Origin: a virus
Direction: 5' to 3' (one strand)
DNA: 64,000 nt
Virus record (IMG/VR): IMGVR_UViG_3300025789_000024
Coordinates: 51,391-115,390 of that record
This document shows, one piece after another, positions 19,107 through 58,424 of the stretch. Both the position numbers and the translations under genes were made by a program. Position 1 is the first letter of the stretch, and every line of letters starts with the position of its first letter. Below the pieces are notes generated by a model. That model worked only from the letters and a program-made list of their open reading frames with translations. It made no database searches and was not told where the DNA came from.

Positions 19107-19113
19107 ATAAATA
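19107..19113 (+). promoter_or_regulatory. T4-late-like promoter motif ATAAATA
   Basis: ATAAATA 5 nt before the ATG at 19119; the same (N)TAAATA motif recurs upstream of many genes in the window and resembles the T4 gp55 late promoter TATAAATA. Confidence 0.6.
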
Positions 19114-25313: not shown

Positions 25314-26716
25314 TGTCAAACGAAACAGATAGAATTAAAACAATCAAAATTCGAGTAGAGAACGAATCTACTCCTACATTCTGTTTGGCTAAGTGGCATC
25401 ATGTTACTATGTACTTACAAAGTGGTGAGACACATAGTTGTTATCACCCACAACCACATAAGATTCCTTTAGAAGAACTGCGTGATAATCCCAGCGCATT
25501 GCATAATACGCAAGAGAAAAAGATGGAACGCAAGTTGATGCTTGAAGGTGGTAAGCCTACAGGTTGTCAATATTGCTGGAACATTGAAGCAATGGGACCT
25601 GACTATATCAGCGACCGTCATATTCGCAACAGTAGTATCTTTACAGAAGAACGTTTTGAGCAAACAGCAAAAGGTCCTTGGGACCAAAACATCAATCCAG
25701 AATACTTAGAAATTAACTTTGGTAACGAATGTAATTTCAAGTGCGGTTACTGTCATCCAAAGTATAGCACAAGTTTTTATAAAGAGATTGAAAAGTTTGG
25801 TCCCGTTACTAATGTAAAGAATCATCGTTGCGACATTGACTGGATGAAACTATATCAACGTGAAGAAGAAAATCCCTACGTTGATGCGTTTTGGAAATGG
25901 TGGCCTGAACTACGCAAGACATTAAACATCATGCGTGTAACAGGTGGCGAACCCACACTTCACAAATCTACATGGCAACTGTTAGATAAGATTGAAGAAG
26001 AACCCATGCCTTGGCTTGAACTAAACATTAACAGCAATCTTGGAACAAAGCCAGTTCTCATAGAACGTTTAGCAGACAAGGTCAAAAAGTTAGTAGACGA
26101 AAATAAAATTCAAAGTTTTAAATTGTTTACTAGCATGGATACATGGGGAGAACGTGCTGAGTATATTCGTACTGGGTTAGACTTAAAGTTGTGGGAACAA
26201 AACTTTCACACTTATGTACAACGCAGTAACAGCCCAATTACATTCATGATTACATTCAATATCTTTAGTGTGACTTCATTTAAGTCATTGCTTGAGAAGT
26301 TTTTAGAATGGCGTGAACAATATGGTTGGTTTGAAGAAAAGTCACACGACAAACATAGAATTCGTTTTGATACTCCATACCTTCGTGACCCTATTCAATA
26401 TGACATGAACATTCTTCCCAAAGAAGAGTTTATGCCCTATATGTATGAATCACTACAGTTTATGAAGGACAATGTAGACGATACTGCTAGTAACAAGTTT
26501 ACAACAATAGAATATGAAAAGTTCAAACGTGTAGTTGACTACATGGCTGAAACTAATTATGAAGAAAAGAAGTTGATTGAAGGTCGTAGAGACTTTTACA
26601 ACTGGTTCAATGAGTTAGATGATCGCAGAGAAAATGACTTATTAACCGTGTACCCAGAAATGTTGGAGTTTTATAGATTATGCCAGGAAACCAGCCTAAC
26701 GAATCCTCTTTCGTAA
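25313..26716 (+). CDS. Radical SAM protein with N-terminal twitch/SPASM-like domain
   Basis: CxxxCxxC = CNFKCGYC; GGEP motif; N-terminal FCLAKW...SC...CQYCW auxiliary cysteines. Confidence 0.9.
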   Translation: MSNETDRIKTIKIRVENESTPTFCLAKWHHVTMYLQSGETHSCYHPQPHKIPLEELRDNPSALHNTQEKKMERKLMLEGGKPTGCQYCWNIEAMGPDYISDRHIRNSSIFTEERFEQTAKGPWDQNINPEYLEINFGNECNFKCGYCHPKYSTSFYKEIEKFGPVTNVKNHRCDIDWMKLYQREEENPYVDAFWKWWPELRKTLNIMRVTGGEPTLHKSTWQLLDKIEEEPMPWLELNINSNLGTKPVLIERLADKVKKLVDENKIQSFKLFTSMDTWGERAEYIRTGLDLKLWEQNFHTYVQRSNSPITFMITFNIFSVTSFKSLLEKFLEWREQYGWFEEKSHDKHRIRFDTPYLRDPIQYDMNILPKEEFMPYMYESLQFMKDNVDDTASNKFTTIEYEKFKRVVDYMAETNYEEKKLIEGRRDFYNWFNELDDRRENDLLTVYPEMLEFYRLCQETSLTNPLS

Positions 26717-27981
26717 AAAAGTTATTGCTTGGTAAGAGCAAGACTTTTTGTATGATACCTTGGGTTCACCTACATACCACCCCTGAGGGAGTGGCAGCAC
26801 CTTGTTGTATTGCAGAATCTTGTGCAACAAAAGAAGGTGTGGGTGATTCTAAAACACAAGGACTAATGGAACTAGTCAACAGCGAAAAGATGAACCAACT
26901 ACGACTAGATATGTTGACTGGTAAAGAAAACATTGAATGCAGCAAGTGTTATAACCATGATGCACAGGGTATTGATAGTTTTAGAACCACATCTAATAAA
27001 CAATGGAAAAATTCATTTGACGATGTATTAGAAAACACAAATCTTGAAGACGGATCATTAAAAGAATTCAAAATGCGATATTTTGATATTCGCTTTAGCA
27101 ATATCTGTAATTTCAAATGTCGCACATGCGGATCAGCGTTTAGTACTCAGTGGGAACAAGAAGATTTAAAGAACGGAGTATTCTATGCAAAGATTATTCC
27201 AAAAAATAATAATAAAAAGTTTTTGCAAGACGTATTAGATCAAATTCCAAATATGGAAATTGCATACTTTGCAGGTGGCGAACCATTAATCACTGAAGAA
27301 CATTATATCCTACTTGAAGAAATGATTCGTAGCAGTCACACAGATATCTTATTAAGATACAATACTAACCTAAGTAACTTAAAGTTTAAAGATAAAGATT
27401 TACTTGGTTTATGGAAACACTTTAGTCAAAAAATTCAAGTATATGCAAGTATTGATCATTGCAAAGAACGTGCAGAATATATTAGACATGGAACTGATTG
27501 GGGACAAGTTGAAACAAACTTTATGCTTGCCAAACAAACTCCCTATGTTAACATTCAAATTAACACAGTACTAAGTGTGTTCAACTATTTGACTATTGAT
27601 GAGTTTTACCAATATTTAATTGATAAGGGTATGTATACTAATAAGGATGCAGTGTTTACATTATATAACATGACGACCCCTGATCATTTGACATGTCATA
27701 TTCTACCACCTGAGTACAAAGTAAAAGGTGAAGAAAGTATCAACAGAGCAATACAGTATATGAGAAACAATGATTTTCTTGATCTACATACACAACAACT
27801 TGAAGTTGCTCCGGGTTGGGTAAATCACAAAGATAATTGGGACGAACAAAAAGTTAAATTTAAAGAAGAAGTAAAACGTCTTGATGCTATAAGAGGAGAA
27901 TCATTCATGGAAACATTCCCTGAAATTGCAAATCTTTATAAACCAGAGCAAAGAGTAAGAGCAAGAATGGCACCAGTATGA
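26680..27981 (+). CDS. Radical SAM protein with N-terminal twitch domain
   Basis: FCMIPWVH...PCC...CSKC; CNFKCRTC; YFAGGEP; YNTN. The start codon is uncertain (37-bp overlap with the upstream gene). Confidence 0.9.
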   Translation: MPGNQPNESSFVKKLLLGKSKTFCMIPWVHLHTTPEGVAAPCCIAESCATKEGVGDSKTQGLMELVNSEKMNQLRLDMLTGKENIECSKCYNHDAQGIDSFRTTSNKQWKNSFDDVLENTNLEDGSLKEFKMRYFDIRFSNICNFKCRTCGSAFSTQWEQEDLKNGVFYAKIIPKNNNKKFLQDVLDQIPNMEIAYFAGGEPLITEEHYILLEEMIRSSHTDILLRYNTNLSNLKFKDKDLLGLWKHFSQKIQVYASIDHCKERAEYIRHGTDWGQVETNFMLAKQTPYVNIQINTVLSVFNYLTIDEFYQYLIDKGMYTNKDAVFTLYNMTTPDHLTCHILPPEYKVKGEESINRAIQYMRNNDFLDLHTQQLEVAPGWVNHKDNWDEQKVKFKEEVKRLDAIRGESFMETFPEIANLYKPEQRVRARMAPV

Positions 27982-29213
27982 ACATAGACAAAGAATTTTT
28001 ATTAAACGAAAGCAAAACATTTTGCATGTTCCCTTGGGTCCATCTTAATGTAACACCCAAGGGTGATATCTATCCTTGCTGTAGTAACGACTACACTAAG
28101 CCCTATGGTAACACTAAGAAGTCTTCACTTAAAGAAGCATTCAACAGTGAACCAATGAAAAAGTTGCGATTAGATATGCTAAATGAAAAACAGAACGAAC
28201 TATGTACGTTTTGTTACAAGCATGAAGAAGCCGGTCCGCACAGTTTTAGAAACTACAGCAAAGAACAATTTGGTAAACGCTTTGACGAAATTGTTCCAAC
28301 TACACAGGAAGATGGAACAGTAGAAGAATTCAAAATGCGATATTTTGATATTCGCTTTAGCAATATCTGTAACTTCAAGTGTAGAACTTGCGGTAGTGAA
28401 TTCAGCAGCCAATGGGGTGCAGAAATGCAAAAGCACTTTGATGACAAACATCCAATTGTTATTCATGCTGACGATGGTAAGGGTAATGTGTTGGCAGAAG
28501 TACTTGAACATATTGAACATATTGATTTGGCATACTTTGCAGGTGGTGAACCACTGATCACAGACGAGCATTATGTGATGTTGGAAGAAATGATTCGTTT
28601 GGGTAAAACTGATATCACATTACGATACAACACAAATGCAAGTAATATCAAGTATAAGAAACATGATATCCTAGACTTATGGAAACATTTTAAAAAGATT
28701 GAATTAAGTTGTAGCGTAGATCATTATGGTGAACGAGCAGAATGGTTACGCAAGGGAACTGATTGGGGCAAAGTTGAAACCAATCTATTAACATTCCGTG
28801 ACTTAGATTACATTAGTTTCCAAATGAACACTGTGTTTAGTATTTTTAACTATAGCACCATTGGTGAGTTCTATCAGTATTTAAAAGACAAAAACATTGT
28901 TAGACGAGATGATTGGTATCATAGTTTATATTTGGCTGTGCATCCAGATTACTATTGTGCTAAGAGTTTACCCAAAGAATTAAAAGTTGATGCAGCTAGT
29001 AAAGCACTTGCATGGGCAGATGCTAATAAAGATGACAACACCTCATTATCAAGATTAGTTACAGACGCAGTTAATTTTGCTAGTGATAAAGATCAATGGA
29101 GCGAAGTTAAAGGTAAGTTTTTGCAACATACCCGAAGTATTGATAGAATCAGAGAAGAAAACTTCTGGGAAGTATTCCCCGAATTAAATAAATTACAGGA
29201 CTTAGAGGAATAA
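27978..29213 (+). CDS. Radical SAM protein with N-terminal twitch domain
   Basis: FCMFPWVH...PCC...CTFC; CNFKCRTC; YFAGGEP; close paralog of 26680..27981. Confidence 0.9.
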   Translation: MNIDKEFLLNESKTFCMFPWVHLNVTPKGDIYPCCSNDYTKPYGNTKKSSLKEAFNSEPMKKLRLDMLNEKQNELCTFCYKHEEAGPHSFRNYSKEQFGKRFDEIVPTTQEDGTVEEFKMRYFDIRFSNICNFKCRTCGSEFSSQWGAEMQKHFDDKHPIVIHADDGKGNVLAEVLEHIEHIDLAYFAGGEPLITDEHYVMLEEMIRLGKTDITLRYNTNASNIKYKKHDILDLWKHFKKIELSCSVDHYGERAEWLRKGTDWGKVETNLLTFRDLDYISFQMNTVFSIFNYSTIGEFYQYLKDKNIVRRDDWYHSLYLAVHPDYYCAKSLPKELKVDAASKALAWADANKDDNTSLSRLVTDAVNFASDKDQWSEVKGKFLQHTRSIDRIREENFWEVFPELNKLQDLEE

Positions 29214-29215
29214 AC

Positions 29216-29476
29216 ATGGCAACATTTGAAGCTGGAAACCGAGACGTAAAACTTGAAGGTATGGTAAAAGACATTATGGCAAAGTATGTCGATAAGACAC
29301 CTTTTACTGAAGAAATTTGTGATCAAATCATGACAGATGTACTAGAGACATTTGGTAAAGAAGCCGATGCAAAGGTTATGATTGACACAGATACCAATGA
29401 AATTGAAATCACAGTTCGTGATTTGATTAAGCAACCAATGACATTCTCATCACTTAAATTATTCAAGGCAAAATAA
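29216..29476 (+). CDS. Small acidic hypothetical protein (86 aa) embedded in the radical SAM array
   Basis: GAGG SD; TAATG overlap with the next gene; no recognised motif. Confidence 0.6.
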   Translation: MATFEAGNRDVKLEGMVKDIMAKYVDKTPFTEEICDQIMTDVLETFGKEADAKVMIDTDTNEIEITVRDLIKQPMTFSSLKLFKAK

Positions 29477-30747
29477 TGGACAACGCAGTAGTCAAAAATC
29501 TAGTAGAAAACGGTAAACACTTTTGTGTACTACCTTGGGTACATTTTCATGCATGGCCTGATAGTCGTGTAATGCCTTGCTGTATTGCAGATAGCAACAT
29601 GCCCGTGGCAAAAATTGAAAGTGACGTATCCATCATTGAAATGATGAATAGTGAAGACTACAAGAAAATGCGTACAGCAATGATGAATGATGAGCCTGTT
29701 GAGGCTTGCAAACGTTGCTATGACTTGGAACTAATGGGCACATGGACTATGCGTCAAAGTCATAATAAACGCAGAGGTCTAGATTATGTTGACTATATTG
29801 TTGATGTTACAAATGATGATGGTTCATTAAAAGAATTTGAAATGAAGTACATGGATATTCGTTTTAGTAATTTATGTAATATGAAATGTCGTAGTTGCGG
29901 GCCTGCATGTTCAAGTCAATGGGCACAAGAGTTCATGGATCAACGCGGGGAAGAAATGTTTAAAAAGTATTTCCCTAACCAAAAAATTGTTGTTAACAAC
30001 AATGAAGACCAAACACTTATGCTTAAACTAAAGCCATATCTTGCTGATGTGACTGAAGTATACTTTGCTGGTGGCGAAATTATTATTACTCCTGAACACT
30101 ATGAGTGCTTAGACTATTGGATTGAAAATGGATTAACCGATCAAGTTGAATTAAACTACACAACAAACTTCTCATCATTGAAGTATAAAAAGAATGTAGA
30201 CTTGATTGATTATTGGAGTAAGTTCCCTAACTTGCAAGTATGGGCATCACTTGATGCACATGGTGAATTAGGTGAGTGTATTCGTAAGGGTACTGATTGG
30301 GAAAAGATTGAAGCAAACATTCGTGAGATTAAAGAAAAAGTTCCGCATGTTAAGTTTCAGATTACTCCCACAATCAGTATTTGGAATGTGTTTGACTTCC
30401 CAGACTTCTTTGACTATATGATTGAAAAAGGCTTTATTGATACAATGTCAAGCCCACGCTTTAACTTAGCGACTAATCCATGGTACGCAAACATTATGAT
30501 TCTACCTAAGCACGTTAAACGTAGGCTAACAGAATTGTATAGAGTATATCAAGAAAAGTACAAAGATAACATTGATATCTATAATGGATTTAAAATGATT
30601 ATCTATAACTTAAATGTCGGTGATGAAAACAAAGGTGGTATCTTAGAGTTTAAGCAGTTCAATGATGAACTTGACACATTCCGTGACGAAAAACTTGAAG
30701 ATATCGTACCAGAATTAAAAGAGGTCTATGAGTGGGCCGCAAGTTAA
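29476..30747 (+). CDS. Radical SAM protein with N-terminal twitch domain
   Basis: FCVLPWVH...PCC...CKRC; CNMKCRSC; YFAGGE; YTTN. Confidence 0.9.
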   Translation: MDNAVVKNLVENGKHFCVLPWVHFHAWPDSRVMPCCIADSNMPVAKIESDVSIIEMMNSEDYKKMRTAMMNDEPVEACKRCYDLELMGTWTMRQSHNKRRGLDYVDYIVDVTNDDGSLKEFEMKYMDIRFSNLCNMKCRSCGPACSSQWAQEFMDQRGEEMFKKYFPNQKIVVNNNEDQTLMLKLKPYLADVTEVYFAGGEIIITPEHYECLDYWIENGLTDQVELNYTTNFSSLKYKKNVDLIDYWSKFPNLQVWASLDAHGELGECIRKGTDWEKIEANIREIKEKVPHVKFQITPTISIWNVFDFPDFFDYMIEKGFIDTMSSPRFNLATNPWYANIMILPKHVKRRLTELYRVYQEKYKDNIDIYNGFKMIIYNLNVGDENKGGILEFKQFNDELDTFRDEKLEDIVPELKEVYEWAAS

Positions 30748-45370: not shown

Positions 45371-46855
45371 ATGCAATATTTAGGAATTAGTTGCGGCTTC
45401 CATGACGCAGCCGTAACTGTTATCGATTCTAGAGGTAACATACAATTTGCTGGGCACAGTGAAAGATATAGCAAAAATAAACATGATGCTAATCTTTGTC
45501 ACGGCTTATTAAACGATGCACAGCAATATATTGATGGTGCATATGAAGTTCATTACTATGAAAAGCCATGGAAGAAAGCTATTCGTCAATTGAAGGCTGG
45601 ACAAAGTTTGGGCCCCTTTAGTATGAAGTCACTATTAGGTAAAGAAATACTTGATAAGTTATCAGATCGCAAAGGTAGTATCAAAACACATACCCATCAT
45701 TTGACACATGCGGCGGCAGGGTTTCAAACAAGTCCGTTCAATCACGCAACTGTTGTAGTTATTGACGCTATTGGTGAACTTGATACTATTAGCATCTGGG
45801 ATGCTACGTATGACAAAAACGGTATAGCAAAGTATTCAAAACTATGGGGTAAACAATATCCTAACAGTATTGGCTTGATGTACTCAGCAATGACAAAACG
45901 TGTAGGGTTGCGTCCATTAGATGAAGAATACATTCTCATGGGTATGGTTGCTTATGGTAAAGCATTGCATAGCGAAGAAATTAGTAGTGAGTTTTTAGCA
46001 GACAAAGATAACTTAGAGTTTGCACAAAACTTGCACACCGGAGTAAGAGAGAAATTTTTAGAGAATGCCAACGATATGGATATCGCCGCATCAACTCAAC
46101 TTCTTACTGAAGAACTAATTGATATTGTTATGCGTAAGGCTAGAACATTGGGATTTAGTAGTAATCTAGTCTATGGTGGAGGTGTAGCACTTAATTGCCT
46201 AGCAAACAGATTGTTAGGTAATCATTTCAATAAATTTTGGATTATGCCTAATCCAGGTGATGCTGGCAACAGTTTAGGCGCTGCCGCATTGGGTTATGGT
46301 AAAAAACTAAGATGGAAAAATGCATTTTTAGGGTATAATATTCCTAAATCATACCCCGTAACAGGCTTGTATAGAGAACTAAAACGTAGTAAAATAGCAG
46401 GTGTCGCTAGTGGTCGCGCAGAGTTTGGGCCACGTGCATTGGGTAATCGCAGTTTGTTAGCAGACCCAAGAGGCGATGAAATTAAGGATAAAGTTAATGA
46501 AATCAAACGTAGACAAAAATTCAGACCATTTGCCCCACTTATTTTGGAGGAGTTGGTTCATGATTACTTTGTTATGCCTAGTGGCTGGTGTGACAGTAGG
46601 TATATGCAAGTCATCGCTACTTGTAGGCATCCTGACTTATTTCCTGCTATCGTTCACGCTGACGGCACTAGTCGTGTCCAGACTGTACCCAAAGATGGTT
46701 CAGGAATTAGACAATTACTAGAATACTGGTACAAGCACACAGGTTGTCCTATGTTGCTTAACACAAGTTTGAACATTCGAGGTGAGCCTATGGTCAATGA
46801 TCGTAGTGATGCAGATAGATTTGAAAAATTATATGGAGTAAAAGTCATCTCATGA
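45371..46855 (+). CDS. Carbamoyltransferase (NodU/CmcH/TobZ family)
   Basis: GFHDAA; SERYS..KHD; HHLTHAA; DAIGE; GGVALNC; GDAGNSLGAA; EFGPRALGNRS; KRRQKFRPFAP; DGTSRVQTV; LLNTSLNIRGEPMV. Confidence 0.93.
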   Translation: MQYLGISCGFHDAAVTVIDSRGNIQFAGHSERYSKNKHDANLCHGLLNDAQQYIDGAYEVHYYEKPWKKAIRQLKAGQSLGPFSMKSLLGKEILDKLSDRKGSIKTHTHHLTHAAAGFQTSPFNHATVVVIDAIGELDTISIWDATYDKNGIAKYSKLWGKQYPNSIGLMYSAMTKRVGLRPLDEEYILMGMVAYGKALHSEEISSEFLADKDNLEFAQNLHTGVREKFLENANDMDIAASTQLLTEELIDIVMRKARTLGFSSNLVYGGGVALNCLANRLLGNHFNKFWIMPNPGDAGNSLGAAALGYGKKLRWKNAFLGYNIPKSYPVTGLYRELKRSKIAGVASGRAEFGPRALGNRSLLADPRGDEIKDKVNEIKRRQKFRPFAPLILEELVHDYFVMPSGWCDSRYMQVIATCRHPDLFPAIVHADGTSRVQTVPKDGSGIRQLLEYWYKHTGCPMLLNTSLNIRGEPMVNDRSDADRFEKLYGVKVIS

Positions 46856-47545: not shown

Positions 47546-50500
47546 ATGCTTAGAGATGTATTTTACTACGGAAATAAACCCAACGTTCACCCCAGAGAAA
47601 GATTTGCAGAATCATTAGAAGATGCTAGAGAAAAGTGTACAACCGAACACTTTTGGATCATCAATGAATTCTGTGACTACCGCGGCTTTGATTGGGATTT
47701 TGATTTTGAATTCTTGCCTGATGAAGATGTGTGGGCAGAATCTCACAATAACATTTGGCCCAGCCAACATCAGAAAGATAGCGGCACTTGGTTATGTTCT
47801 AAAGAATTTAGCGAAGTGTTAATCTATCGCGGTGATGTAGAACCTATTATTAGAAAAAATGAAAAGAACGATAATTGGGTACTATTAGATAGTATAGATG
47901 AGTTTAAGTTTGACTTTAGTTGGCATCCTGATCCAACCGATCCTGCTTATATCTATCGTTGGGGTTCAAAGTTTGCACCGGTACAACTAAAACCCGTGTT
48001 AGAGTATCATACTCACGGTGCAACAGAAGTCAGGTATATGAACACTACTGTTGAACTCAATGTTGATAAAGACAACTGGGTGTTTTATCAACAACCTGAT
48101 ACAGACAAGTTTGACTTTACTTGGAGACCTAGTCCATTAGACACCCCTTACATATATGTATGGGGAAATAAACACATCGATGGTATACTAAAACCAACTG
48201 CTGAATACCATGTACCCGGTGCAACTGATAAAAAGTACATGCCAGAAAAATTAGCAGTACTGCCTGAATGGGACAAGTGGGCGCTTTTAAAAGAAGTAGA
48301 TAAAACAAAATTTGATTTTACTTGGAGACCTGATCCACGTGAGCCGGCTTACATTTATACATGGGGTAATAAGTACGAACCTGCTGAAATAACACCTACA
48401 TTGCAGTATGTATGTGAAGGTGCTACAGAAATCAAATACATGGAGGATACAATAGATGTGTTACCACAATGGGATCGTTGGGTAGAAGTACAACAAGTAG
48501 ATAAAACAAAGTTTGATTTTACTTGGAGACCCGATCCACTCGAACCCCCTTACATTTATACTTGGGGTAATAAGTGGATCGAAGCTGAACTAAAGCCTAC
48601 ACTTGAATATCATTGCCCTGGCGCAACCGAACGCAAGTACATGACTAATGATGTGCCTGTAATGCCGGAAATGAATCGATGGAATATCATCGAGAACATT
48701 AGAAAAGATGGATTCGATTTTACTTGGAGACCTGATCCACGTGAACCTGATTTGATTTATGTATTTGGTAATGAATTATATGATGGTATAAAAATGCCTA
48801 CAGTTGAGTATCATTGTGATAACGCAACTGAACGCAAGTACATGGATAATTTAAAAGCAAAACTTGCTTCAAATGAAAAACTCTACGAACATTTAGAAGA
48901 TTCCGTATTAGATGATTATTCATGGTTGCCCGATCCTGATAGCCCACCTTACATTTATGTATGGGGCAATCAATGGAACAAACCCGAAGATAAAATTAGC
49001 GTACAATTAGTTGTACCCGGTGCGTCAGAATATAAATTCATGGATGCCCGTGCAATACGCAAGCCATGCATGGACAATTGGGTAATACCTAGTGATATAG
49101 ATACCACTGGCTTTGACTTTAGTTGGGAACCTAGTCCTGCTGACCCTGCATTTATCTATGAATTTGCAACACAATGGCAAAAGACAGGTGGACCTCGCTA
49201 TGTTGTAGAACATGCAACAGAAACAAAGTACATGGACTTCCAAAAGGCTAAAAAGTTAGTTGATATGACTAACTGGACTATTCCTAAGAACGTTGATGTT
49301 AGTGGCTTTGATTTTAGTTGGCATCCAGATGCAACAAGTCCTCCATACATTTATAACTTTGCAACTCAATGGGCATTAAGTGGTGGACCAACATATACTG
49401 TACCTGGTGCAACAGAACTAAAATATGTAGATGATCAAAAAGCAATAGCAACAGTTGATATGACCAACTGGGAGTTTGATAGTGTATTGATTGATGTTAA
49501 TTCATTTGACTTTAGTTGGCATCCATATGCAGAAGACGAACCCTACATATATCAGTTTGGTACTCAATGGCAAAAAACAGGCGGACCGAGATACATTACT
49601 CCTGGGGTACACAAGAACAGTCCTATAAGTTATGTAGACACACGTGTGTTAAAAGCAAAGCGTTTACCTAATCAAAAGAACTGGGACATACTTGATGATC
49701 TAGTTGTTATTGATTTTGATTATAGTTGGCATCCTGACGAAACTGAACAACCATTTGAATATCACTTTGGTAATAATTTGTATCCAGCAGAGATTATGCC
49801 TACTATGGTCTATCGTGTACCTAGCGCAAAACAAGTAAAGTATGTAAGCGATATTATTGCTACACTGGGTCCAGATAGAAGTAATTGGAATATACCTTCT
49901 GACATTGATGATACTGGGTTTGATTATAGTTGGAAGCCTAATCCAAAAGATCCGCCATATATCTATGAGTTTGCTACCCAATGGCAAAAGACAGGTGGAC
50001 CAAAGTATATTGTAGAAGATGCAACAGAAACAAAATACATTGACACACACAAAGTCAAACACTTATCCAATAAAGAAAATTGGACTGTTCCTACTAACAT
50101 CGATGTTTCAGGGTTTGACTTTAGTTGGCATCCAGATGCAACAAGTCCTCCTTATATCTATAACTTTGCAACTCAGTGGGCGTTGAGTGGTGGACCTGTA
50201 TATACTGTAGCAGGTGCAACAGAAGTCAAGTATATGGAAGATCAAACAGCTAAAGCATTACCTGATATGACCAACTGGGTTATACCTGATGATGTTGATA
50301 AAAACGCATTTGATTATTCATGGCATCCTTATGTAGAAGATCAACCTTACATTTATGTATTTGGTACACAATGGCAAAAGACCGGTGGACCTAAATATAT
50401 GACGCCGGGCGTGCATAAAAACAGTCCCGTAAAATATATTGACACACGTATTTTAAAATCAACTAAATTGCCTTCAAAAAAGAATTGGGATATACCTGAT

Positions 50501-53500
50501 GATATTGATGAAAGTAGTTTTGATTTTAGCTGGCATCCAGACGATACTGAAGAACCATTTATCTATGAATTTGCAACGCAGTGGCAAAAGACCGGCGGAC
50601 CTAAATACATTGTAAAAAATGCAAAATCATTTAAGTACATTGATAGTTTAAAATCTAAAAAATTACCTAATCTAACTAATTGGGATGTTCCTGCTAATAT
50701 TGATATGGATAGCTTTGACTTTAGTTGGCATCCTGATAGCACAGAAGAACCATACAACTATTATTTCCCAACTGAATGGCAAAGTGAAGGTGGTCCTGTG
50801 TATAGAACTCCTTCAGCAAAAAATGATGCATACCCTAATATATTAGTTGCAAAAACATTGCCTACAACAGACAACTGGATAATACCTGAAGGTCTAGACA
50901 CTAGTGAGTTTAAGTTCAATTGGCATCCGCACCCCAAAGATCCTGCATTCATTTATGAATTTGGTACACAATGGCAAAAGACAGGTGGACCAAAGTATGT
51001 GGTCACAGGTGCAGAAGAAACAAAATATATTGATGTTAGCGTAGCAAAAAGATTGCCTAATGCAAATAATTTTGTAACACTCAATAATTATGTGATTGAA
51101 GAATTTGACTATAGTTGGCATCCAGACAGCACAGAAGAGCCATTCATTTATCAGTTTGGTAACAAGTACTACCCTGCTGAACAAATGCCTACAATTGAAT
51201 ATCGTGTTGAAGGTGCTACTCAAGTTAGTTATGTGCATGATGTTGTTGCAACACTAGCAAGTGATAAATCTAATTGGAAAATTCCAAAAGACATTGATAC
51301 AAAGAGTTTTGACTTTGGTTGGAAGCCAAGCCCATTAGAGCCTCCCTATATCTATGAATTCGCCACTCAGTGGCAAAAAACAGGTGGACCTATCTATAGA
51401 GTAGCAGGTGCTACTGAAAAAAAATATGTTGACATCATTAAAGCAACACACTTGTCCTCAAGAAAAGGTTGGGAAGTTCCTGATGTTGACTTAACTGATT
51501 TTGATTTTAGTTGGCATCCTGATGCAACAAGTCCACCTTATATCTATCAGTTTGGTACTCAATGGGCATTGACTGGTGGTCCAAGATATATTGTCAAGGG
51601 TGGCACAGAAGTAAAATACGTTGAAGGCATTATTGCTAAAGCGTTACCTAGTAGAACCAATTGGGAAATTCCTGATGATATTGCTATTAATGAGTTTGAC
51701 TTTAGTTGGCACCCATACGCAGAAGATGATCCATTCATTTATCAGTTTGGTACACAACACCAACGTACAGGTGGCCCTCGCTATGTAGTACCCGGTGCTA
51801 GTAAAATCAAATACATTGACACACGTATTATCAAAGCACGTAAGTTAGTTAACATGACTAACTGGATCGTATCAAAAGATATTGATGTATCTAAATTTGA
51901 TTTTAGTTGGCATCCAGATGACACAGCACCTCCTTATGTCTATCAGTTTGGTACTATTGAAAATGACACAGACGGCCCAAGATATGTTGTGCCTGGCGAT
52001 ACACTTGATACTGTTTACTTAGAACGTGTTGAACTAGAAGAGTCACAATTTGTTGACTATCCTAAATATGCGATTGAAACTACACTAGATGATTTAGTTA
52101 GTAAACATCCAAATGAAATCTTTTGGGCTATTAATTCAGAACTAGATTATAGTGAATTTAACTTTGATTGGAGACCCTCAATCGAGCAAGTCAAGTATGT
52201 TCATGCGTTTGGTTCTAGTGAAAGCACAACAACACAAACATATTTTGTTAATGCAAATATGTGGAATCAAGGCTTTAGAGATTTGAACTGGGTAGAAGAT
52301 AAAAAACTCGATGACAAAACATTGGCTAAACTATTTAAGAAGCCAGATATGTTCTATGTGGACAAGGGTAACAAAGAATCAGTTATACGTTTTGAATTAC
52401 TTAAAGCCAAATTCCCACACATTCAAAAGACACGTTATCTAAACAGTTGGGTAGATACAATCAACCGCTGTACTAATCGTGCAACAAGTCCTTTGCTATG
52501 GATATTGAATAGTGAGTTGGATTACAGTAACTTTGACTTTGAATACTATCCTAATCCTTGGCAGATGAAAATGGTTCATGTATTTGGTACTCAATGGAGT
52601 CATTGGGGAACCACATTCATGGTCAATCGTGAAACGTTTAGCAATGATACCAAATACATTAAGATCATTGAACACTTGAGTAACTTAAACTTTGTTAAGA
52701 CTAACAGAGCAGTAGCCACACAATGTTTATATGACATTGTATTGATTGATCATGGCAATATCAATAATGTTATTGAATTGTTACAACAAAAGGCAGGTGA
52801 CAAATCTGTTAGTGTTGTTAAGTATGATACAAGTTACTTGAACACAATTAGAACTGTATTGAGTAAACAGCCAGACAAACGTGAAAACTATATTTGGTTG
52901 TGCAGTAGTATTTGCGATTACACAAACTTTGACTTTAGTTATGTTTGCGATCCATTTGCACGTGAACAGTTGCATGTGTTCCCTAGTGGTAAACAAAAGT
53001 TTGGTGACACATTCTTCTTAGATGTTAACAAAGCAAAAGAATTAATAAAAGAGATTGATTCACTGGAAGAATACAACAAGGTTAACTACAATGCGTCATT
53101 GCGTGTACCTAGAATGCCTGAGCCAATCATTGTAACAAGTGATGATACACTTGTTGATGCGGCAAAACGTATTGAAGGATACCCATATGCTGTATTGATG
53201 ACAGAAGATAACAAGAATATTGATGTCATTGATACTGAACCAATGAACTTGTGGAGCCCTGAAACTAAGACAATCATGGTTACAAGCACAGGTGCATCAC
53301 GTATCATTGTGCCACGTGACGTAAAAGACCACGTAAAAACCGAATTATACGATTATCCGTATATTAAGAAATCAACTAAACTTGCTATGAGCAAGCCACT
53401 GGATATAGTCTTCCTAAGCAATGGTGAAACCGGCGCTGACGAGAACTACGAACATTTACTGAAGGTGACTAAGGGTATTAAAAACCGTGTAGTAAGAGTT

Positions 53501-54061
53501 GATGGTGTTAATGGTCGTGCTGCCGCATATCATGCCGCAGTTGAAGCCAGTGAAACACCTTGGGCATTCACAGTCTTTGCTAAATTAAAAGTATCAGCAA
53601 AGTTTGATTGGAACTGGCAACCAGATAGAATGCAAATTCCAAAGCATTATATTTTCCAAGCAAAGAATCCTGTGAATGGTCTAGTTTATGGTCACCAGGC
53701 CATGATCGCATACAACAAGAAACTTACACTTGCTAATACGGGTAAGGGTCTTGACTTTACATTAGATGACGAACATGAAGTTGTGCAATTATTGTCCGGT
53801 ACTGCAATGTACAACACAGATGCATTTAGTACATGGCGTACTGCGTTCCGTGAAGTACTCAAACTACGTGCAGAAGATAGTGATATCGCCCGTGAACGAT
53901 TACATGCATGGTTAAACAAAGCAGAAGGCAATTATTCTCAATACAGCATCAAGGGCGCAGTAGACGCTGACGAATTCTATGATGAAGTCAGTGGAGACTT
54001 TAACCAAATCAAACTAAGTTATGAGTGGGCTTGGTTGCGTGATAGATTTGCCCAGTCATAA
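47546..54061 (+). CDS. 2171-aa tandem-repeat protein with C-terminal degenerate GT-A-like domains
   Basis: 21 copies of a ~57-63-aa unit (W..P..ID...FDFSWHPD....PYIY.FGTQWQKTGGP.Y.V.GATE.KY). The last domain aligns with 24357..25313. TATAAGTA at 47533-47540 precedes the ATG. Confidence 0.75.
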   Translation: MLRDVFYYGNKPNVHPRERFAESLEDAREKCTTEHFWIINEFCDYRGFDWDFDFEFLPDEDVWAESHNNIWPSQHQKDSGTWLCSKEFSEVLIYRGDVEPIIRKNEKNDNWVLLDSIDEFKFDFSWHPDPTDPAYIYRWGSKFAPVQLKPVLEYHTHGATEVRYMNTTVELNVDKDNWVFYQQPDTDKFDFTWRPSPLDTPYIYVWGNKHIDGILKPTAEYHVPGATDKKYMPEKLAVLPEWDKWALLKEVDKTKFDFTWRPDPREPAYIYTWGNKYEPAEITPTLQYVCEGATEIKYMEDTIDVLPQWDRWVEVQQVDKTKFDFTWRPDPLEPPYIYTWGNKWIEAELKPTLEYHCPGATERKYMTNDVPVMPEMNRWNIIENIRKDGFDFTWRPDPREPDLIYVFGNELYDGIKMPTVEYHCDNATERKYMDNLKAKLASNEKLYEHLEDSVLDDYSWLPDPDSPPYIYVWGNQWNKPEDKISVQLVVPGASEYKFMDARAIRKPCMDNWVIPSDIDTTGFDFSWEPSPADPAFIYEFATQWQKTGGPRYVVEHATETKYMDFQKAKKLVDMTNWTIPKNVDVSGFDFSWHPDATSPPYIYNFATQWALSGGPTYTVPGATELKYVDDQKAIATVDMTNWEFDSVLIDVNSFDFSWHPYAEDEPYIYQFGTQWQKTGGPRYITPGVHKNSPISYVDTRVLKAKRLPNQKNWDILDDLVVIDFDYSWHPDETEQPFEYHFGNNLYPAEIMPTMVYRVPSAKQVKYVSDIIATLGPDRSNWNIPSDIDDTGFDYSWKPNPKDPPYIYEFATQWQKTGGPKYIVEDATETKYIDTHKVKHLSNKENWTVPTNIDVSGFDFSWHPDATSPPYIYNFATQWALSGGPVYTVAGATEVKYMEDQTAKALPDMTNWVIPDDVDKNAFDYSWHPYVEDQPYIYVFGTQWQKTGGPKYMTPGVHKNSPVKYIDTRILKSTKLPSKKNWDIPDDIDESSFDFSWHPDDTEEPFIYEFATQWQKTGGPKYIVKNAKSFKYIDSLKSKKLPNLTNWDVPANIDMDSFDFSWHPDSTEEPYNYYFPTEWQSEGGPVYRTPSAKNDAYPNILVAKTLPTTDNWIIPEGLDTSEFKFNWHPHPKDPAFIYEFGTQWQKTGGPKYVVTGAEETKYIDVSVAKRLPNANNFVTLNNYVIEEFDYSWHPDSTEEPFIYQFGNKYYPAEQMPTIEYRVEGATQVSYVHDVVATLASDKSNWKIPKDIDTKSFDFGWKPSPLEPPYIYEFATQWQKTGGPIYRVAGATEKKYVDIIKATHLSSRKGWEVPDVDLTDFDFSWHPDATSPPYIYQFGTQWALTGGPRYIVKGGTEVKYVEGIIAKALPSRTNWEIPDDIAINEFDFSWHPYAEDDPFIYQFGTQHQRTGGPRYVVPGASKIKYIDTRIIKARKLVNMTNWIVSKDIDVSKFDFSWHPDDTAPPYVYQFGTIENDTDGPRYVVPGDTLDTVYLERVELEESQFVDYPKYAIETTLDDLVSKHPNEIFWAINSELDYSEFNFDWRPSIEQVKYVHAFGSSESTTTQTYFVNANMWNQGFRDLNWVEDKKLDDKTLAKLFKKPDMFYVDKGNKESVIRFELLKAKFPHIQKTRYLNSWVDTINRCTNRATSPLLWILNSELDYSNFDFEYYPNPWQMKMVHVFGTQWSHWGTTFMVNRETFSNDTKYIKIIEHLSNLNFVKTNRAVATQCLYDIVLIDHGNINNVIELLQQKAGDKSVSVVKYDTSYLNTIRTVLSKQPDKRENYIWLCSSICDYTNFDFSYVCDPFAREQLHVFPSGKQKFGDTFFLDVNKAKELIKEIDSLEEYNKVNYNASLRVPRMPEPIIVTSDDTLVDAAKRIEGYPYAVLMTEDNKNIDVIDTEPMNLWSPETKTIMVTSTGASRIIVPRDVKDHVKTELYDYPYIKKSTKLAMSKPLDIVFLSNGETGADENYEHLLKVTKGIKNRVVRVDGVNGRAAAYHAAVEASETPWAFTVFAKLKVSAKFDWNWQPDRMQIPKHYIFQAKNPVNGLVYGHQAMIAYNKKLTLANTGKGLDFTLDDEHEVVQLLSGTAMYNTDAFSTWRTAFREVLKLRAEDSDIARERLHAWLNKAEGNYSQYSIKGAVDADEFYDEVSGDFNQIKLSYEWAWLRDRFAQS
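47870..52030 (+). repeat. Intragenic coding tandem repeat, ~21 units of ~170-190 bp
   Basis: Recurrent TTTGA(C/T)TTTAGTTGGCATCC and CAATGGCAAAAGACAGGTGGACC nucleotide motifs, all in frame. Confidence 0.9.
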
Positions 54062-54450: not shown

Positions 54451-55505
54451 TGAAAATATTAGGTTTGGAAGTGTGGAGTCAATCTCCAGAAAATGTCTCC
54501 ACTTTTTTCAACAGATTAGAAACTGAAGAATTTGATTACATTGTTTTGTTTGGACAAAATGAATGGCAATACTATCAAGCCTTTGCCCATGTATTAGACA
54601 GAGCAATACAAGAAGTTTGTATTAAACGCAATCAAACACTTTATATATTTAACGGATCGGCTATCGTCAATGAAGTTGACGAACCTACGTTGCACCCTTT
54701 AGTAAAAGTTATTGCATGGCCTGAATGGTATTTCATTAAAACCTATGCACAAATGTGTTCTCATAGCAAACATTATAAAATTAATTATAATTTAAATGTA
54801 GATGTTGACACATACAAATATCATTACATTACCATGAACAATCGTGCGCATCCGCATAGATGTTATATGATGGATATATTGGCAAAATATAATTTGATTG
54901 AACGTGGTGCCATTTCTTGGGCAGAAGAATACTATACAGAAGATCCTTATCCTTGGCAATACTGGATACCCAAGTTATTAAAATTAGGATCATATCTCGA
55001 AAGTGAAAAAATTTGGCTCAATATACCAGATGAATTCTACGATTCATTTGTTTCATTAATAAATGAGTCTACAATTGATTCTGTGATCTTTAGTGAAAAA
55101 ACTGTATTTGCATTGGTATGCGGGCAACCTTTTATTTGTGTTTCGGGACCAGGACATCATAAGTTACTAGAAAATATGGGATTTGAGTTGTATACAGAAT
55201 TGTTTGACTATTCATTTGATAGTGAGAAAGATAATAATAAACGAACAGAATTGGTAGTACAAAACATAGAACGTATTTGTAAATTATCACTAGACGAACT
55301 AGCAGTACTTAAACAACAAATCAAGCCTAAAATTATAAGAAACAAGCAAAGGGTAAGAGATATCGCAATGTCGCCCAATTCATATTGTGACATAATTGCA
55401 AGCGTGAGACAATTAGATCAGATTGAAAGCGCCACTGCATGTAGTTGGATTTGGCACATGTATTTTTTGCTTGACGACTGTCATAAAAATAATACGCTTT
55501 TATAA
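54450..55505 (+). CDS. 'TEK'-motif putative glycosyltransferase
   Basis: MNNRAHPHR; SFVSLINES...FSEKTVFALVCGQPFI...MGFELYTELFDYSFD; paralog of 34019..35095. Confidence 0.45.
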   Translation: MKILGLEVWSQSPENVSTFFNRLETEEFDYIVLFGQNEWQYYQAFAHVLDRAIQEVCIKRNQTLYIFNGSAIVNEVDEPTLHPLVKVIAWPEWYFIKTYAQMCSHSKHYKINYNLNVDVDTYKYHYITMNNRAHPHRCYMMDILAKYNLIERGAISWAEEYYTEDPYPWQYWIPKLLKLGSYLESEKIWLNIPDEFYDSFVSLINESTIDSVIFSEKTVFALVCGQPFICVSGPGHHKLLENMGFELYTELFDYSFDSEKDNNKRTELVVQNIERICKLSLDELAVLKQQIKPKIIRNKQRVRDIAMSPNSYCDIIASVRQLDQIESATACSWIWHMYFLLDDCHKNNTLL

Positions 55506-55538
55506 TAAATAATATTACTGTTTTAGAAAGGGTGTTTT

Positions 55539-55694
55539 ATGAAACAACATAAATTAATCACCAAATTATATAAGGCATGTTTCGATCATGACCAAGAAAA
55601 GCAACAAGAGTTGCGAGTAAAAGAATTTGCGAAAATTTTTAAACGCAAATCTGAGGGCAAAAAGTTTACTGCCAAGTGGACGGTAGTTCACTAA
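55539..55694 (+). CDS. Small basic hypothetical protein (51 aa, not in ORF track)
   Basis: ATAAATA at 55505-55511 and GAAAGGG SD upstream; manual translation [51 protein letters not shown]. Confidence 0.6.
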
Positions 55695-55697
55695 ATA
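55691..55697 (+). promoter_or_regulatory. Late-like promoter CTAAATA, likely driving the tmRNA precursor
   Basis: Motif lies immediately upstream of the tmRNA acceptor piece. Confidence 0.5.
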
Positions 55698-55779
55698 AAA
55701 AGAACAGCGTAAACTGTTATTAAGAAAAGTATTCTGGACGGGGGTGCGAATCCCCCCAGGTCCACCATAAGGAGATTTG

Positions 55780-55786
55780 ATAAATA
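55780..55786 (+). promoter_or_regulatory. Late-like promoter ATAAATA inside the tmRNA intervening segment
   Basis: ATAAATA 4 nt before the ATG at 55791; an AAGGAG at 55769-55774 is too far from the ATG for a standard SD and is part of the closing helix. Confidence 0.55.
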
Positions 55787-55790
55787 CTAG

Positions 55791-56096
55791 ATGCGAATAA
55801 AAGAACTCACTGAATCATTTAACAAGTGCTATAACATGGCCTGTAAGGTATATGATTTAGCAAGTTCTAAAAATTTGCAACCTAAACTAATACAAGTAGC
55901 AGATTACAAAGGCGATGGTTCTGGCGCTGATAAACGCTGGCAAAAACTACCGCAAAGAGTATGGCAACATTATGTCACAGTAATCGGCAATAAAGTTTAT
56001 GACCCAACTGCTAAACAGTTTGGACCTGACAAAGATACTGAGTATAGTTTAGAAAAATTAGATACTGAATGGGGAAAACAGTATCATATCAAATAA
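55791..56096 (+). CDS. 101-aa protein in the tmRNA intervening segment; putative papain/transglutaminase-like (Cys-His-Asp) fold
   Basis: NKCYNMA...WQHYVTVIGNKVYDPTAKQF gives a C...H...D arrangement. The N-terminal MRIKELTE resembles capsid-targeting leaders of phage internal proteins. Confidence 0.6.
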   Translation: MRIKELTESFNKCYNMACKVYDLASSKNLQPKLIQVADYKGDGSGADKRWQKLPQRVWQHYVTVIGNKVYDPTAKQFGPDKDTEYSLEKLDTEWGKQYHIK

Positions 56097-56290
56097 GTCT
56101 TTTTGTGATGGGCCTGATATAGATTCGACAGGGTAACAAGTAAGAGTAACGGCGCTCGGCAAAGCAGAAGCCGTAGGATTGGGGTTTCCCGATTATAGAC
56201 GCAAAACCTATAACTGCAAACGACAGTTTATACGCCATTGCCGCTTGAGCATAGCCGAGGTAGTTATACCTTGTAACCAAAAATAACAGT

Positions 56291-56317
56291 AAGGGACATT
56301 CGTGTCCCTTCCTTTTT
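56291..56317 (+). terminator. Rho-independent terminator after the tmRNA coding piece
   Basis: AAGGGACA-TTCG-TGTCCCTT perfect 8-bp stem with a UUCG loop, followed by CCTTTTT. Confidence 0.85.
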
Positions 56318-56333
56318 GTTCGATAAATACACT

Positions 56334-58424
56334 ATGGACATCAAAGAACTTCACTCATTCAAATTATCTGATGCGGTTAAATTTCACGACAAACTTAATC
56401 CTAAATTATGGTTTGGTGAAAGACTAGACCCTGCTGTTAGAAAACAATTATTAGTCATTGCCAAGGACTTTATGAGCGAACTTGGCATACATGATTTAGC
56501 AGTTGATGATATCACGGTATCAGGTAGCAATGCCGCATATACATATACTCCTCATAGTGACTTAGACCTACATATCCTAGTAGACATGAGCAAACTAATG
56601 AATAATGATGTATACCAAGAATTGTTTAATGCAAAGAAAACACTATACAATGACAGCCATGATATCAAAATCAAGGGTGTACCCGTAGAATTATATGTAC
56701 AAGATAGCAATGAACCTGTTGTTAGCTTGGGTGAATACAGCGTATTAAACAATCAGTGGATCAAGCGTCCAACTAAACGCAGAGCCAATCTAGATCAAAA
56801 TGCCACACGTGCAAAGTTTGACAAACTAGCAGAAATGGTAAGTCTGGCATTAAAGACACAAGATTTAGAAAAACTTAACAAAGTTATTAAAAATATTAAA
56901 CGTTATCGTCAAGCAGGACTAGACAAAGGTGGTGAGTTTAGCCCCGAAAATCTAGCATATAAAGCATTGCGCAGTCAAGGTCAGATAGACAAACTGTACA
57001 ACTTACGTGACAAATTACATAGTGAGTTATTGAGCATTGATGAAATGTATCGTAATCCTGTTACTATACAAAAAGAAGAACAAGAAAAAACATTTAAGGC
57101 TAGTCAAGTTTGGAACTATGTTAAAAAGATACACCCTGCTGATCAACAAGGTGATGGCTTTTTAAAAAGTTTAGTTATCAATCATCCTAAATGGGAACTT
57201 AAACACGTTCCATTAAATCAAATTCGTATACCTGATCCATATGCAGAAGATGATTTTGAAGATGCATACAATCGTGTGTTGGATATTGACATGTACCATG
57301 TTAATGACATTACATCACATGATATTAACAAAAGGCCTATCGTTATTGATACTGATGGATTTGTCATTGATGGTAATCATAGAGCATTGTCAGCAAGATT
57401 GCGTGGTATGAAAACGATTCCTGCATATGTTCCTGTAGGTAAATTAGAAGAAAAAGTTAACTATGATTTACTAAATGATCCTGAACCAGTTGATCAAACA
57501 GTTGATTGGAACGGTTATAAATTTAGAATTCAAAACACATTGAATGGTGTAGAGGATACCCCCGGTGTAGTTATCAAAGCATATGATCCTAAGAATCTAA
57601 ATCACAGTATAGGTAAAGCAGATTTTGTATTACACAAAGATAAAAAAGGTGCATGGATCGAAAGTAACGACACAGAAGTAGATGATGAATATCAAGGTAA
57701 GGGTATTGCTACTATGATGTATGCAGTTGCTAAAAGCATGGGTTTTGATGTTAGACCTAGTCCTTATCAAAGCAATGCTGGTAGACAAATGTGGAAGAAG
57801 TGGGGTAGTGATGCTAAGAACTTGATGAAAGAAACATTTGATAAACCCTATCCACTAAAATGGGAAAAGAGTGAGTATGGTGATGTTGATGCATTGGCGA
57901 CATTACCAGATGGTGCACCATTGAGTATCATGTTTGAACATACTACTCCATATGAAGTTCATGTGTCTTTCTATAGAAACAATAGTTTAGAAGTCACCGG
58001 GGAAGGTGATTCACAAAGAGTATTTGCAACAGTGCTACATGCTATTCAAGAATTTCTTAAAATGGAACAACCAGCAAATATATCATTTTCAGCAAGTAAA
58101 GAAGTTGAGCCTGGACAAAACAGTGAAAGCCGCGCTAAACTTTACAATAGATTAGTTCAGCGATATGCAAATGCATGGGGATATAAATTCCATAGCTTTG
58201 ATCACGGTGATGAAGTTGTATATGAATTGTCTAGGATCAAGCAAGATGTTAGCGAAGCCTCAGGGTACATCCCAACCTATGCTCAACGAAATGACCCAAG
58301 ATTCGAAAAAGCATTGACAGTAGACGTACATCCTGATACAATGAAAAAGGGTGCTAAAAAGTTCGGCTGGAACATCAGTCGTGCAGGCATTCCACCAACA
58401 GCAAAACCAAACGGTAAAATTTAA
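56334..58424 (+). CDS. Multi-domain protein: nucleotidyltransferase + ParB-like + GNAT acetyltransferase + unknown C-terminal domains
   Basis: Start corrected to the ATG at 56334 (ATAAATA at 56323-56329; the track's start lies in the terminator). GS-x9-DLD (VSGSNAAYTYTPHSDLDLHI) Pol-beta NTase motif; PIVID...VIDGNHR ParB motif; VDDEYQGKGIATMMY acetyl-CoA motif A; TGEGDSQRVFATV domain. Confidence 0.75.
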   Translation: MDIKELHSFKLSDAVKFHDKLNPKLWFGERLDPAVRKQLLVIAKDFMSELGIHDLAVDDITVSGSNAAYTYTPHSDLDLHILVDMSKLMNNDVYQELFNAKKTLYNDSHDIKIKGVPVELYVQDSNEPVVSLGEYSVLNNQWIKRPTKRRANLDQNATRAKFDKLAEMVSLALKTQDLEKLNKVIKNIKRYRQAGLDKGGEFSPENLAYKALRSQGQIDKLYNLRDKLHSELLSIDEMYRNPVTIQKEEQEKTFKASQVWNYVKKIHPADQQGDGFLKSLVINHPKWELKHVPLNQIRIPDPYAEDDFEDAYNRVLDIDMYHVNDITSHDINKRPIVIDTDGFVIDGNHRALSARLRGMKTIPAYVPVGKLEEKVNYDLLNDPEPVDQTVDWNGYKFRIQNTLNGVEDTPGVVIKAYDPKNLNHSIGKADFVLHKDKKGAWIESNDTEVDDEYQGKGIATMMYAVAKSMGFDVRPSPYQSNAGRQMWKKWGSDAKNLMKETFDKPYPLKWEKSEYGDVDALATLPDGAPLSIMFEHTTPYEVHVSFYRNNSLEVTGEGDSQRVFATVLHAIQEFLKMEQPANISFSASKEVEPGQNSESRAKLYNRLVQRYANAWGYKFHSFDHGDEVVYELSRIKQDVSEASGYIPTYAQRNDPRFEKALTVDVHPDTMKKGAKKFGWNISRAGIPPTAKPNGKI

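Follow-up and report, generated by a model that had tools for sequence, protein, structure and literature searches.

A protein-coding spacer in the circularly permuted tmRNA gene of a large freshwater phage and its likely use as an exchangeable cargo slot

Introduction

What is a complete open reading frame (ORF) doing between the two halves of a tmRNA gene? Circularly permuted tmRNA genes (RF04321, RF01850) are known from Caulobacter and some Betaproteobacteria and have the order acceptor piece, CCA, spacer, G1, and coding piece; their single precursor is cut by tRNA-processing enzymes. Phage examples include those of the OM43 phage Melnitz and of pelagimyophages (PMC9004378, PMC11915505), and two-piece tmRNAs, which are common in aquatic phages, make up 53 of 133 unique phage tmRNAs (PMC9004378). 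Neither gene callers nor tmRNA annotation take account of the spacers of permuted tmRNA genes, which are regarded as disposable. A tmRNA database paper of 2025 mentions as odd spacers one tRNA-Ala gene and one repetitive element and reports no protein-coding spacer, and a full-text search of the literature, including the Melnitz paper, gave no description of ORF-bearing tmRNA spacers.

The locus considered here lies in the final 64 kb (the window) of a 115-kb viral record with an estimated completeness of 32%. An original prediction, made from this DNA alone, had described a 101-codon ORF in the spacer of a permuted tmRNA gene, looped out by a 15-bp extension of the acceptor helix. The explanation that we favor, with a probability of about 0.65, is that the helix serves the tmRNA, that both pieces and the spacer are transcribed as one precursor, and that the spacer is a cargo slot which in this phage holds a gene for a head-packaged protein module, expressed late from an ATAAATA motif.

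The tmRNA gene and the spacer ORF

ARAGORN called a permuted tmRNA at 55675-56339, the sole one found in the window, and the Rfam model RF04321 (tmRNA_permuted) matched 55705-56248 over model positions 1-213 with 101 bits, the gathering score being 47. All parts lie on the plus strand. The acceptor piece extends from its 5' pairing region to the CCA (55705-55767, by sequence reading, ARAGORN, and Rfam); read from the sequence, it comprises the T-arm (55740-55756), the acceptor 3' strand (55757-55763), the discriminator A (55764), and the encoded CCA (55765-55767). The coding piece (56110-56290, from the same three sources) starts with G1 at 56110 and the acceptor 5' strand (56110-56116), which pairs with 55757-55763 to a seven-pair stem that includes the alanine-identity G3.U pair (56112/55761). 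The tag frame at 56216-56248, ANDSLYAIAA followed by a stop codon, was placed by homology to that of the relative L016 (ANDEVYALAA and stop); ARAGORN proposes an alternative, earlier resume codon at 56201. The T-loop, TGCGAAT, is non-canonical, and the same T-arm is present in the short-spacer relatives L094 and L124. The tmRNA of the relative L001 shows compensatory T-stem changes, and full-length Rfam matches of 85-101 bits were obtained for all six members of the clade. Judged by these sequence and model matches, the locus holds a circularly permuted tmRNA gene of betaproteobacterial type, which looks functional and belongs to a large T4-like freshwater phage.

The 115-kb record gave no match to SmpB (PF01668), an absence that is uninformative because the record is only 32% complete; a host copy of SmpB may act as partner of the phage tmRNA. 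The 24 listed sequencing runs with the sequence are of DNA or of unrecorded type and nearly all of them are freshwater metagenomes. GenBank phages gave no match to a 1-kb region by blastn or to the spacer ORF by tblastn, and the tmRNA of a high-scoring relative matched them in short tRNA-like stretches only. PHROG annotation of ten window proteins yielded solely auxiliary-metabolism matches, which do not indicate the phage type.

Since the CCA ends at 55767 and G1 is 56110, the spacer, which is absent from the mature tmRNA, spans 55768-56109 (sequence, Rfam) and measures 342 nt, and direct reading of the sequence thus bears out the predicted length. It contains, again as predicted, an ORF of 101 codons (55791-56096; ORF list, homologues, alignment, and structural model) and an ATAAATA motif of its own (55780-55786). 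A group I intron was considered for this segment and rejected, as no group I intron family gave an Rfam match at the gathering score within the window and the segment is bounded by CCA and G1 and not by splice sites.

The ORF is under purifying selection, with pairwise dN/dS values of 0.08-0.2, and its differences from the homologue in L002 are distributed 14/14/39 over the three codon positions, that is, mostly at the third. Seven close homologues were present in the protein collection and a profile search retrieved 143 representative clusters; the same ORF occupies the same place in six independent viral or metagenomic loci (L001/L005, L002, L006, L007/L008, L009). The dN/dS values and the homologues rule out a chance reading frame, and on these data the intact permuted tmRNA gene carries a real gene in its spacer.

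The closing helix

The two strands of the helix that closes the spacer are located at 55764-55778, including ACCA and AAGGAG (55769-55774), and at 56095-56109, overlapping the stop codon of the ORF and ending 1 nt before G1. The pairing matches its earlier description exactly: 14 of 15 positions are paired, four of them as G.U (55768/56105, 55771/56102, 55772/56101, and 55776/56097), and the helix continues the acceptor stem, contains the AAGGAG, and takes in two bases (56095-56096) of the ORF's TAA stop codon. The single mismatch is C55765 x A56108. By our own calculation, which assumed a pairing probability of 0.375 per position, at least 14 of 15 pairs are expected by chance at one fixed position with a probability of about 1e-5. 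The minimum-free-energy fold of 55757-56116 retains and extends the helix (z = -6.05).

The G.U pairs had been taken as a sign of selection at the RNA level. Alone they are a weak sign, whereas the comparison of homologous phage loci, which had been proposed as a check, supports such selection: over 113 loci the helix is conserved and covaries. With positions numbered from the discriminator base and pairing scored at positions 5-15, in-register pairing across the 113 phage spacers amounts to 92%; register shifts of 1-3 nt lower it to 41-64%, and shuffling of the 3' strands among loci lowers it to 73% (sd 1%, maximum 75.5%). The set comprises 61 different 5' strands, and every one of positions 8-15 shows three to five standard pair types. 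Cargo makes no difference to the strength of the helix (10.1 of 11 pairs with an ORF versus 10.2 without), and the main role of the helix is therefore probably in the folding and processing of the tmRNA precursor and not in the control of the ORF. We infer that it is mainly a clamp which folds the precursor, presents it for processing, and into which a ribosome-binding site and a stop codon were fitted secondarily.

A separate observation concerns the C74 x A mismatch beside the discriminator pair (55765 x 56108 in the window), which is kept in 111 of the 113 loci; RNase P or the 3' maturation machinery may use it for recognition or cleavage.

Spacer content across phages

The 113 distinct phage spacers, 29-491 nt in length, were collected by scanning viral contigs for the acceptor 3' end followed by TAA and then for the same pattern with GGA added, and by joining loci found through their ORFs; a spacer was counted only if a recognisable coding piece follows. 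Short spacers are non-coding. Those which begin with TAAGGAG or TAAGGAA almost always hold an ORF that fills the spacer, starts 9-13 nt after the CCA, and has its stop codon shortly before G1, either a TGA at a distance of 1 nt or a TAG at about 12 nt. When only spacers of 80 nt or more are counted, 64 with a Shine-Dalgarno-like motif are filled by an ORF and 5 are not, and the corresponding numbers for spacers lacking the motif are 5 and 17 (Fisher p = 4e-10). Whereas the described spacers of permuted tmRNAs are short and non-coding, one third of the phage genes sampled here carry ORFs; this proportion comes from the first-pattern sample, which is unbiased toward ORFs and in which 20 of 63 spacers (32%) are ORF-filled. 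At all 18 ORF-bearing loci tested, the match to RF04321 across the ORF exceeded the gathering score (69-144 bits), and some of these loci additionally match the beta or alpha tmRNA model.

The cargos are diverse. Spacer ORFs in the sampled phage genes encode 22-151 aa, and 64 of them fall into 38 unrelated clusters, which include many hydrophobic peptides of 22-40 aa, thioredoxin, GNAT-like modules, a cysteine-rich protein, and two papain-like proteins. A comparison of the window with L001 gives 90% identity for the spacer, 73% for the acceptor piece, and 71% for the coding piece. The mature tmRNA sequences nearest to that of the window are those of L007 (84%), which has the same ORF, L174 (83%), which has a gene for a 33-aa membrane peptide, and L016 (79%), which has no cargo. 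This contrast in identity, together with the different or missing cargos beside the nearest tmRNAs, indicates that the histories of cargo and tmRNA are decoupled. The suggestion that the spacer works as a cargo slot is supported by the occurrence of empty and variously filled spacers in related phages, and the comparison of these sequences shows that small genes have repeatedly been inserted and exchanged at this site in a large family of aquatic phages. If a third of the permuted tmRNA genes of aquatic phages hide ORFs, a class of small genes is absent from phage annotation, which would include membrane peptides, thioredoxin, GNAT modules, and papain-like modules. The slot also suggests a route for the cassette exchange of injected or accessory phage proteins.

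A 51-aa ORF between the candidate promoter and the acceptor piece of the window (55539-55694, plus strand) is related to the 43-aa spacer ORF of L184 (39% identity over 41 aa, pairwise E = 3e-7); the slot seems both to take up and to release small genes. At L242, two acceptor-type pieces 273 nt apart precede one coding piece, with apparent spacers of 112 and 385 nt, an arrangement that could be tandem or nested. A 14-mer scan of bacterial genome contigs gave, among the matches listed, only tRNAs and chance matches, and neither RF04321 in three betaproteobacterial metagenome-assembled genomes nor RF01850 in 41 genomes of one family had a match above the cut-off.

Transcription unit and start context

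The nearest candidate start of the transcription unit is a sigma-70-like promoter at 55478-55506 (CTGTCA-17-TATAAT, plus strand), assigned by consensus match only (10 of 12 positions), and its sole intrinsic-terminator-like hairpin with T run is located at 56291-56320 (plus strand). The promoter lies upstream of the 51-aa ORF and not at the spot usual in the family, just upstream of the acceptor piece, where 29 of 112 loci have a strong sigma-70-like promoter at a fixed position (that of L016 is a perfect TTGACA-17-TATAAT); one inside the spacer was seen in 3. Of 112 spacers, 2 contain a terminator-like site, whereas such a site follows the coding piece at 70 of 103 loci; none separates the two pieces in the window. 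The placement of terminators and promoters, in the window as in the family, fits a single precursor. The gene in the window would be transcribed from the promoter through acceptor piece, ORF, and coding piece to the terminator, and the helix would join the two far-apart halves of the acceptor stem, allowing RNase P cleavage at G1 and 3' maturation at CCA at any loop length. A stem clamped in this way would explain why the loop tolerates cargo of 29 to 491 nt.

The start of the window ORF has a context of its own. The AAGGAG of the helix is located 15 nt from the ATG, with the ATAAATA motif in between, and is poorly placed as a Shine-Dalgarno site for this ORF. The motif itself is T4-late-promoter-like and is separated from the ATG by 4 nt. 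The 115-kb record has 13 plus-strand ATAAATA sites, and at 7 of them (window positions 19107, 31696, 38610, 55780, and 56323; G000:C1:19557 and 46820) an ORF of 51-696 aa has its ATG 4-5 nt further on; no Shine-Dalgarno sequence is present upstream of the five ORFs started in this way in the window. The geometry ATAAATA-N4-ATG resembles the T4 late promoter TATAAATA with its nearly leaderless transcript. The identical motif and spacing recur in L215 and L231, which carry other cargos. ATAAATA may be a T4-late-type promoter that yields nearly leaderless mRNAs. In the sub-class of loci represented by the window, the ORF would probably also, or mainly, be expressed late from the ATAAATA within the spacer, and the helix-embedded AAGGAG is probably not its main route of expression. 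If ATAAATA is a promoter, the coding piece would also be made as part of an acceptor-less transcript, and a common precursor would then not be obligatory.

The gene directly past the tmRNA terminator (56334-58424), which encodes 696 aa, shares the ATAAATAC-N3-ATG start with the spacer ORF, and its product begins with MDIKEL, of the MxIKEL type like that of the spacer ORF. This protein has a nucleotidyltransferase-like N-terminus (phrog_36119) and ParB-like, GNAT-like, and DUF6934-like regions; a relative of 1447 aa (P0041) also includes the module encoded by the spacer ORF.

The encoded protein

The protein encoded in the spacer matched no Pfam or PHROG family at threshold. Its AlphaFold2 model is a confident alpha/beta structure (pLDDT 85.5), in which three residues invariant in the alignment of the ORF family are located in helix 3-26 (Cys13), in strand 59-65 (His60), and right after strand 68-70 (Asp71). 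Structural matches were weak, both with Foldseek (best E = 0.08) and with VIA-align (Z at most 5.0), but nearly all were to the papain/transglutaminase-like superfamily, the top rows of VIA-align being mostly of this kind: SseI, TglA, LapG, PeiW, arylamine N-acetyltransferase, and C39 peptidases. On the model, the protein looks like a minimal Cys-His-Asp papain/transglutaminase-like module of 93 aa; enzymatic activity is a guess, as the fold similarity is weak and a Pfam or PHROG family match is missing.

The closest relatives are modules within proteins of 260-1447 aa that also contain GNAT, dCMP-deaminase, NUDIX, HAD, GH19, or M78 domains. A GVAE site precedes the module in these relatives by a few residues, a second one comes about 102 aa after the first, and the proteins have MRAQEFIAE-type N-termini. 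The window ORF starts with the eight residues MRIKELTE, ending in LTE, and continues with SFNKC, which in P0005 follows GVAEG. An N-terminus of this kind is present in all six cargo clusters of at least 100 aa. The capsid-targeting sequence (CTS) of T4 is MKTYQEFIAE, and the prohead protease gp21 cleaves according to the rule L/I-x-E. The N-terminus of the ORF resembles such a propeptide, which has about 10 residues, in its hydrophobic P3 and its Glu at P1, as a pattern match to a short motif; the biology of the T4 capsid-targeting propeptide and the gp21 protease has been described (PMC9026906, PMC3012670). A gp21-type prohead protease (Peptidase_S77, PF03420) is encoded at G000:C1:23177-23620 (E = 1.1e-28), and this family was also detected in four of four related large records. 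The cargo would thus combine a T4-type capsid-targeting propeptide with a papain/transglutaminase-like module, the gp21-type protease would cut after LTE, and the protein is probably packaged in the head, processed, and then injected.

The relatives of the ORF include modules of about 102 aa bounded by GVAE within large multi-enzyme proteins of L016 (1979-3834), L010, L013, L017, and L020, and these GVAE-delimited proteins look like polyproteins cut by the gp21-type prohead protease. The multi-enzyme protein of L016 is composed of GNAT, the module, a hydrophobic linker, and GH19; its gene ends about 30 nt before the perfect sigma-70 promoter, which drives a permuted tmRNA gene with a 58-nt spacer.

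Relation to known systems

The nearest parallel is found in 23S rRNA genes, which in Leptospira and others reportedly have intervening sequences that carry ORFs. There, too, a conserved ORF resides in a stem-closed spacer that is cut from the precursor of a stable RNA without religation, leaving an RNA that is fragmented and functional. The 23S rRNA intervening sequences differ in that they are excised by RNase III and contain one ORF family, whereas in the phage tmRNAs excision would be by RNase P and 3' trimming and the cargos are dozens of unrelated ones. Group I introns with homing-endonuclease genes in tmRNA and tRNA genes (PMC11915505) likewise nest a protein gene in a removable segment of a tmRNA gene; unlike these, the window cargo is no endonuclease, there is no splicing or religation, and the mature RNA would be two-piece. 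The internal-protein (IP) genes of T-even phages share with the window ORF a short N-terminal propeptide with hydrophobic P3 and Glu P1, cassette-like exchange of mature parts that are highly diverse, probable late expression, and a gp21-type prohead protease in the genome (PMC9026906, PMC3012670). In contrast to the IP genes, the window gene is located inside a tmRNA spacer, its papain-like mature part also occurs in GVAE-delimited polyproteins, and its packaging is only predicted. In the tRNA region of T4 with its interspersed ORFs and in the tufB operon of Escherichia coli, stable RNAs and mRNA are freed from a common transcript by RNase P and RNase E. In these units the ORFs lie between complete RNA genes, whereas the window ORF lies between the halves of one acceptor stem and would provide a natural case of one transcript being both mRNA and the precursor of a stable RNA, with a covarying helix built in.

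Alternative explanations

A more far-reaching version of the cargo slot, which we hold only tentatively, is that of a dedicated gene-cassette platform, in which the conserved helix arms would serve as recombination handles for the swapping of cargos among phages and, with a ribosome-binding site on one strand and a stop codon on the other, as a switch from messenger to tmRNA precursor. If this were true, the amount of ribosome-rescue RNA would be linked to the synthesis of the cargo, often a membrane peptide or an injected enzyme.

Rather unlikely in our estimate is an obligate coupling, the stronger reading offered by the original prediction, in which the spacer RNA would function as mRNA once excised and closed by its stem, the helix would gate translation by sequestering ribosome-binding site and stop codon, and protein output would depend on, or alternate with, tmRNA processing. 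Coupling would account for the GGAG or GGAA which most ORF-bearing relatives have 5-8 nt ahead of the ATG within the 5' strand of the helix, and for the stops at the TGA or TAG close to G1. As these stops are placed in the 3' strand of the helix, many cargos end in -VSL, encoded there, and since a ribosome terminating at this point would cover G1 and the acceptor 5' strand, translation and tmRNA folding would be mutually exclusive for each molecule. Against coupling stand the equal strength of the helix in ORF-less spacers and, in the window, the distance of the AAGGAG from an ATG whose ATAAATA-N4 context is that of genes without a Shine-Dalgarno sequence. Moreover, the ribosome-binding site could be lost when the trailer is trimmed, as is normal in the 3' maturation of precursors that encode CCA. 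For the ATAAATA sub-class to which the window belongs, we consider coupling of ORF expression to processing less likely.

The probability is lower still that the two pieces are independent genes, transcribed separately and assembled in trans, with the helix as a relic. The promoter-like ATAAATA between the pieces would suit such an arrangement, and the mature pieces have to pair in trans anyway. However, no terminator follows the acceptor piece and only two spacers family-wide have one, a relic would not hold 92% pairing through 61 sequence variants, and RNase P needs an acceptor stem, which is formed most easily in cis.

That the tmRNA was inactivated by the insertion and is decaying, so that only the ORF matters, is highly improbable: the unusual T-loop and the missing SmpB would fit, but the same T-arm in short-spacer relatives, the compensatory T-stem changes, the intact tag frame, and the full-length Rfam matches throughout the clade speak against it, and a pseudogene was rejected on the Rfam scores and the covariation.

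Genomic neighbourhood

In L001, a relative of 331 kb, the ORF-bearing tmRNA gene is part of a tRNA gene cluster (1265-1706 and 5665-5983), with genes for tRNA-Met, tRNA-Arg, and tRNA-Leu upstream and for tRNA-Asp, tRNA-Glu, and tRNA-Tyr downstream; no tRNA genes were found in the window. The window further encodes a protein of 6289 aa (234-19100) and a repeat-built protein of 2171 aa (47546-54061), and between these two ORFs are located the genes for four radical-SAM paralogues (25313-30744) and a Nol-like carbamoyltransferase (45371-46852).
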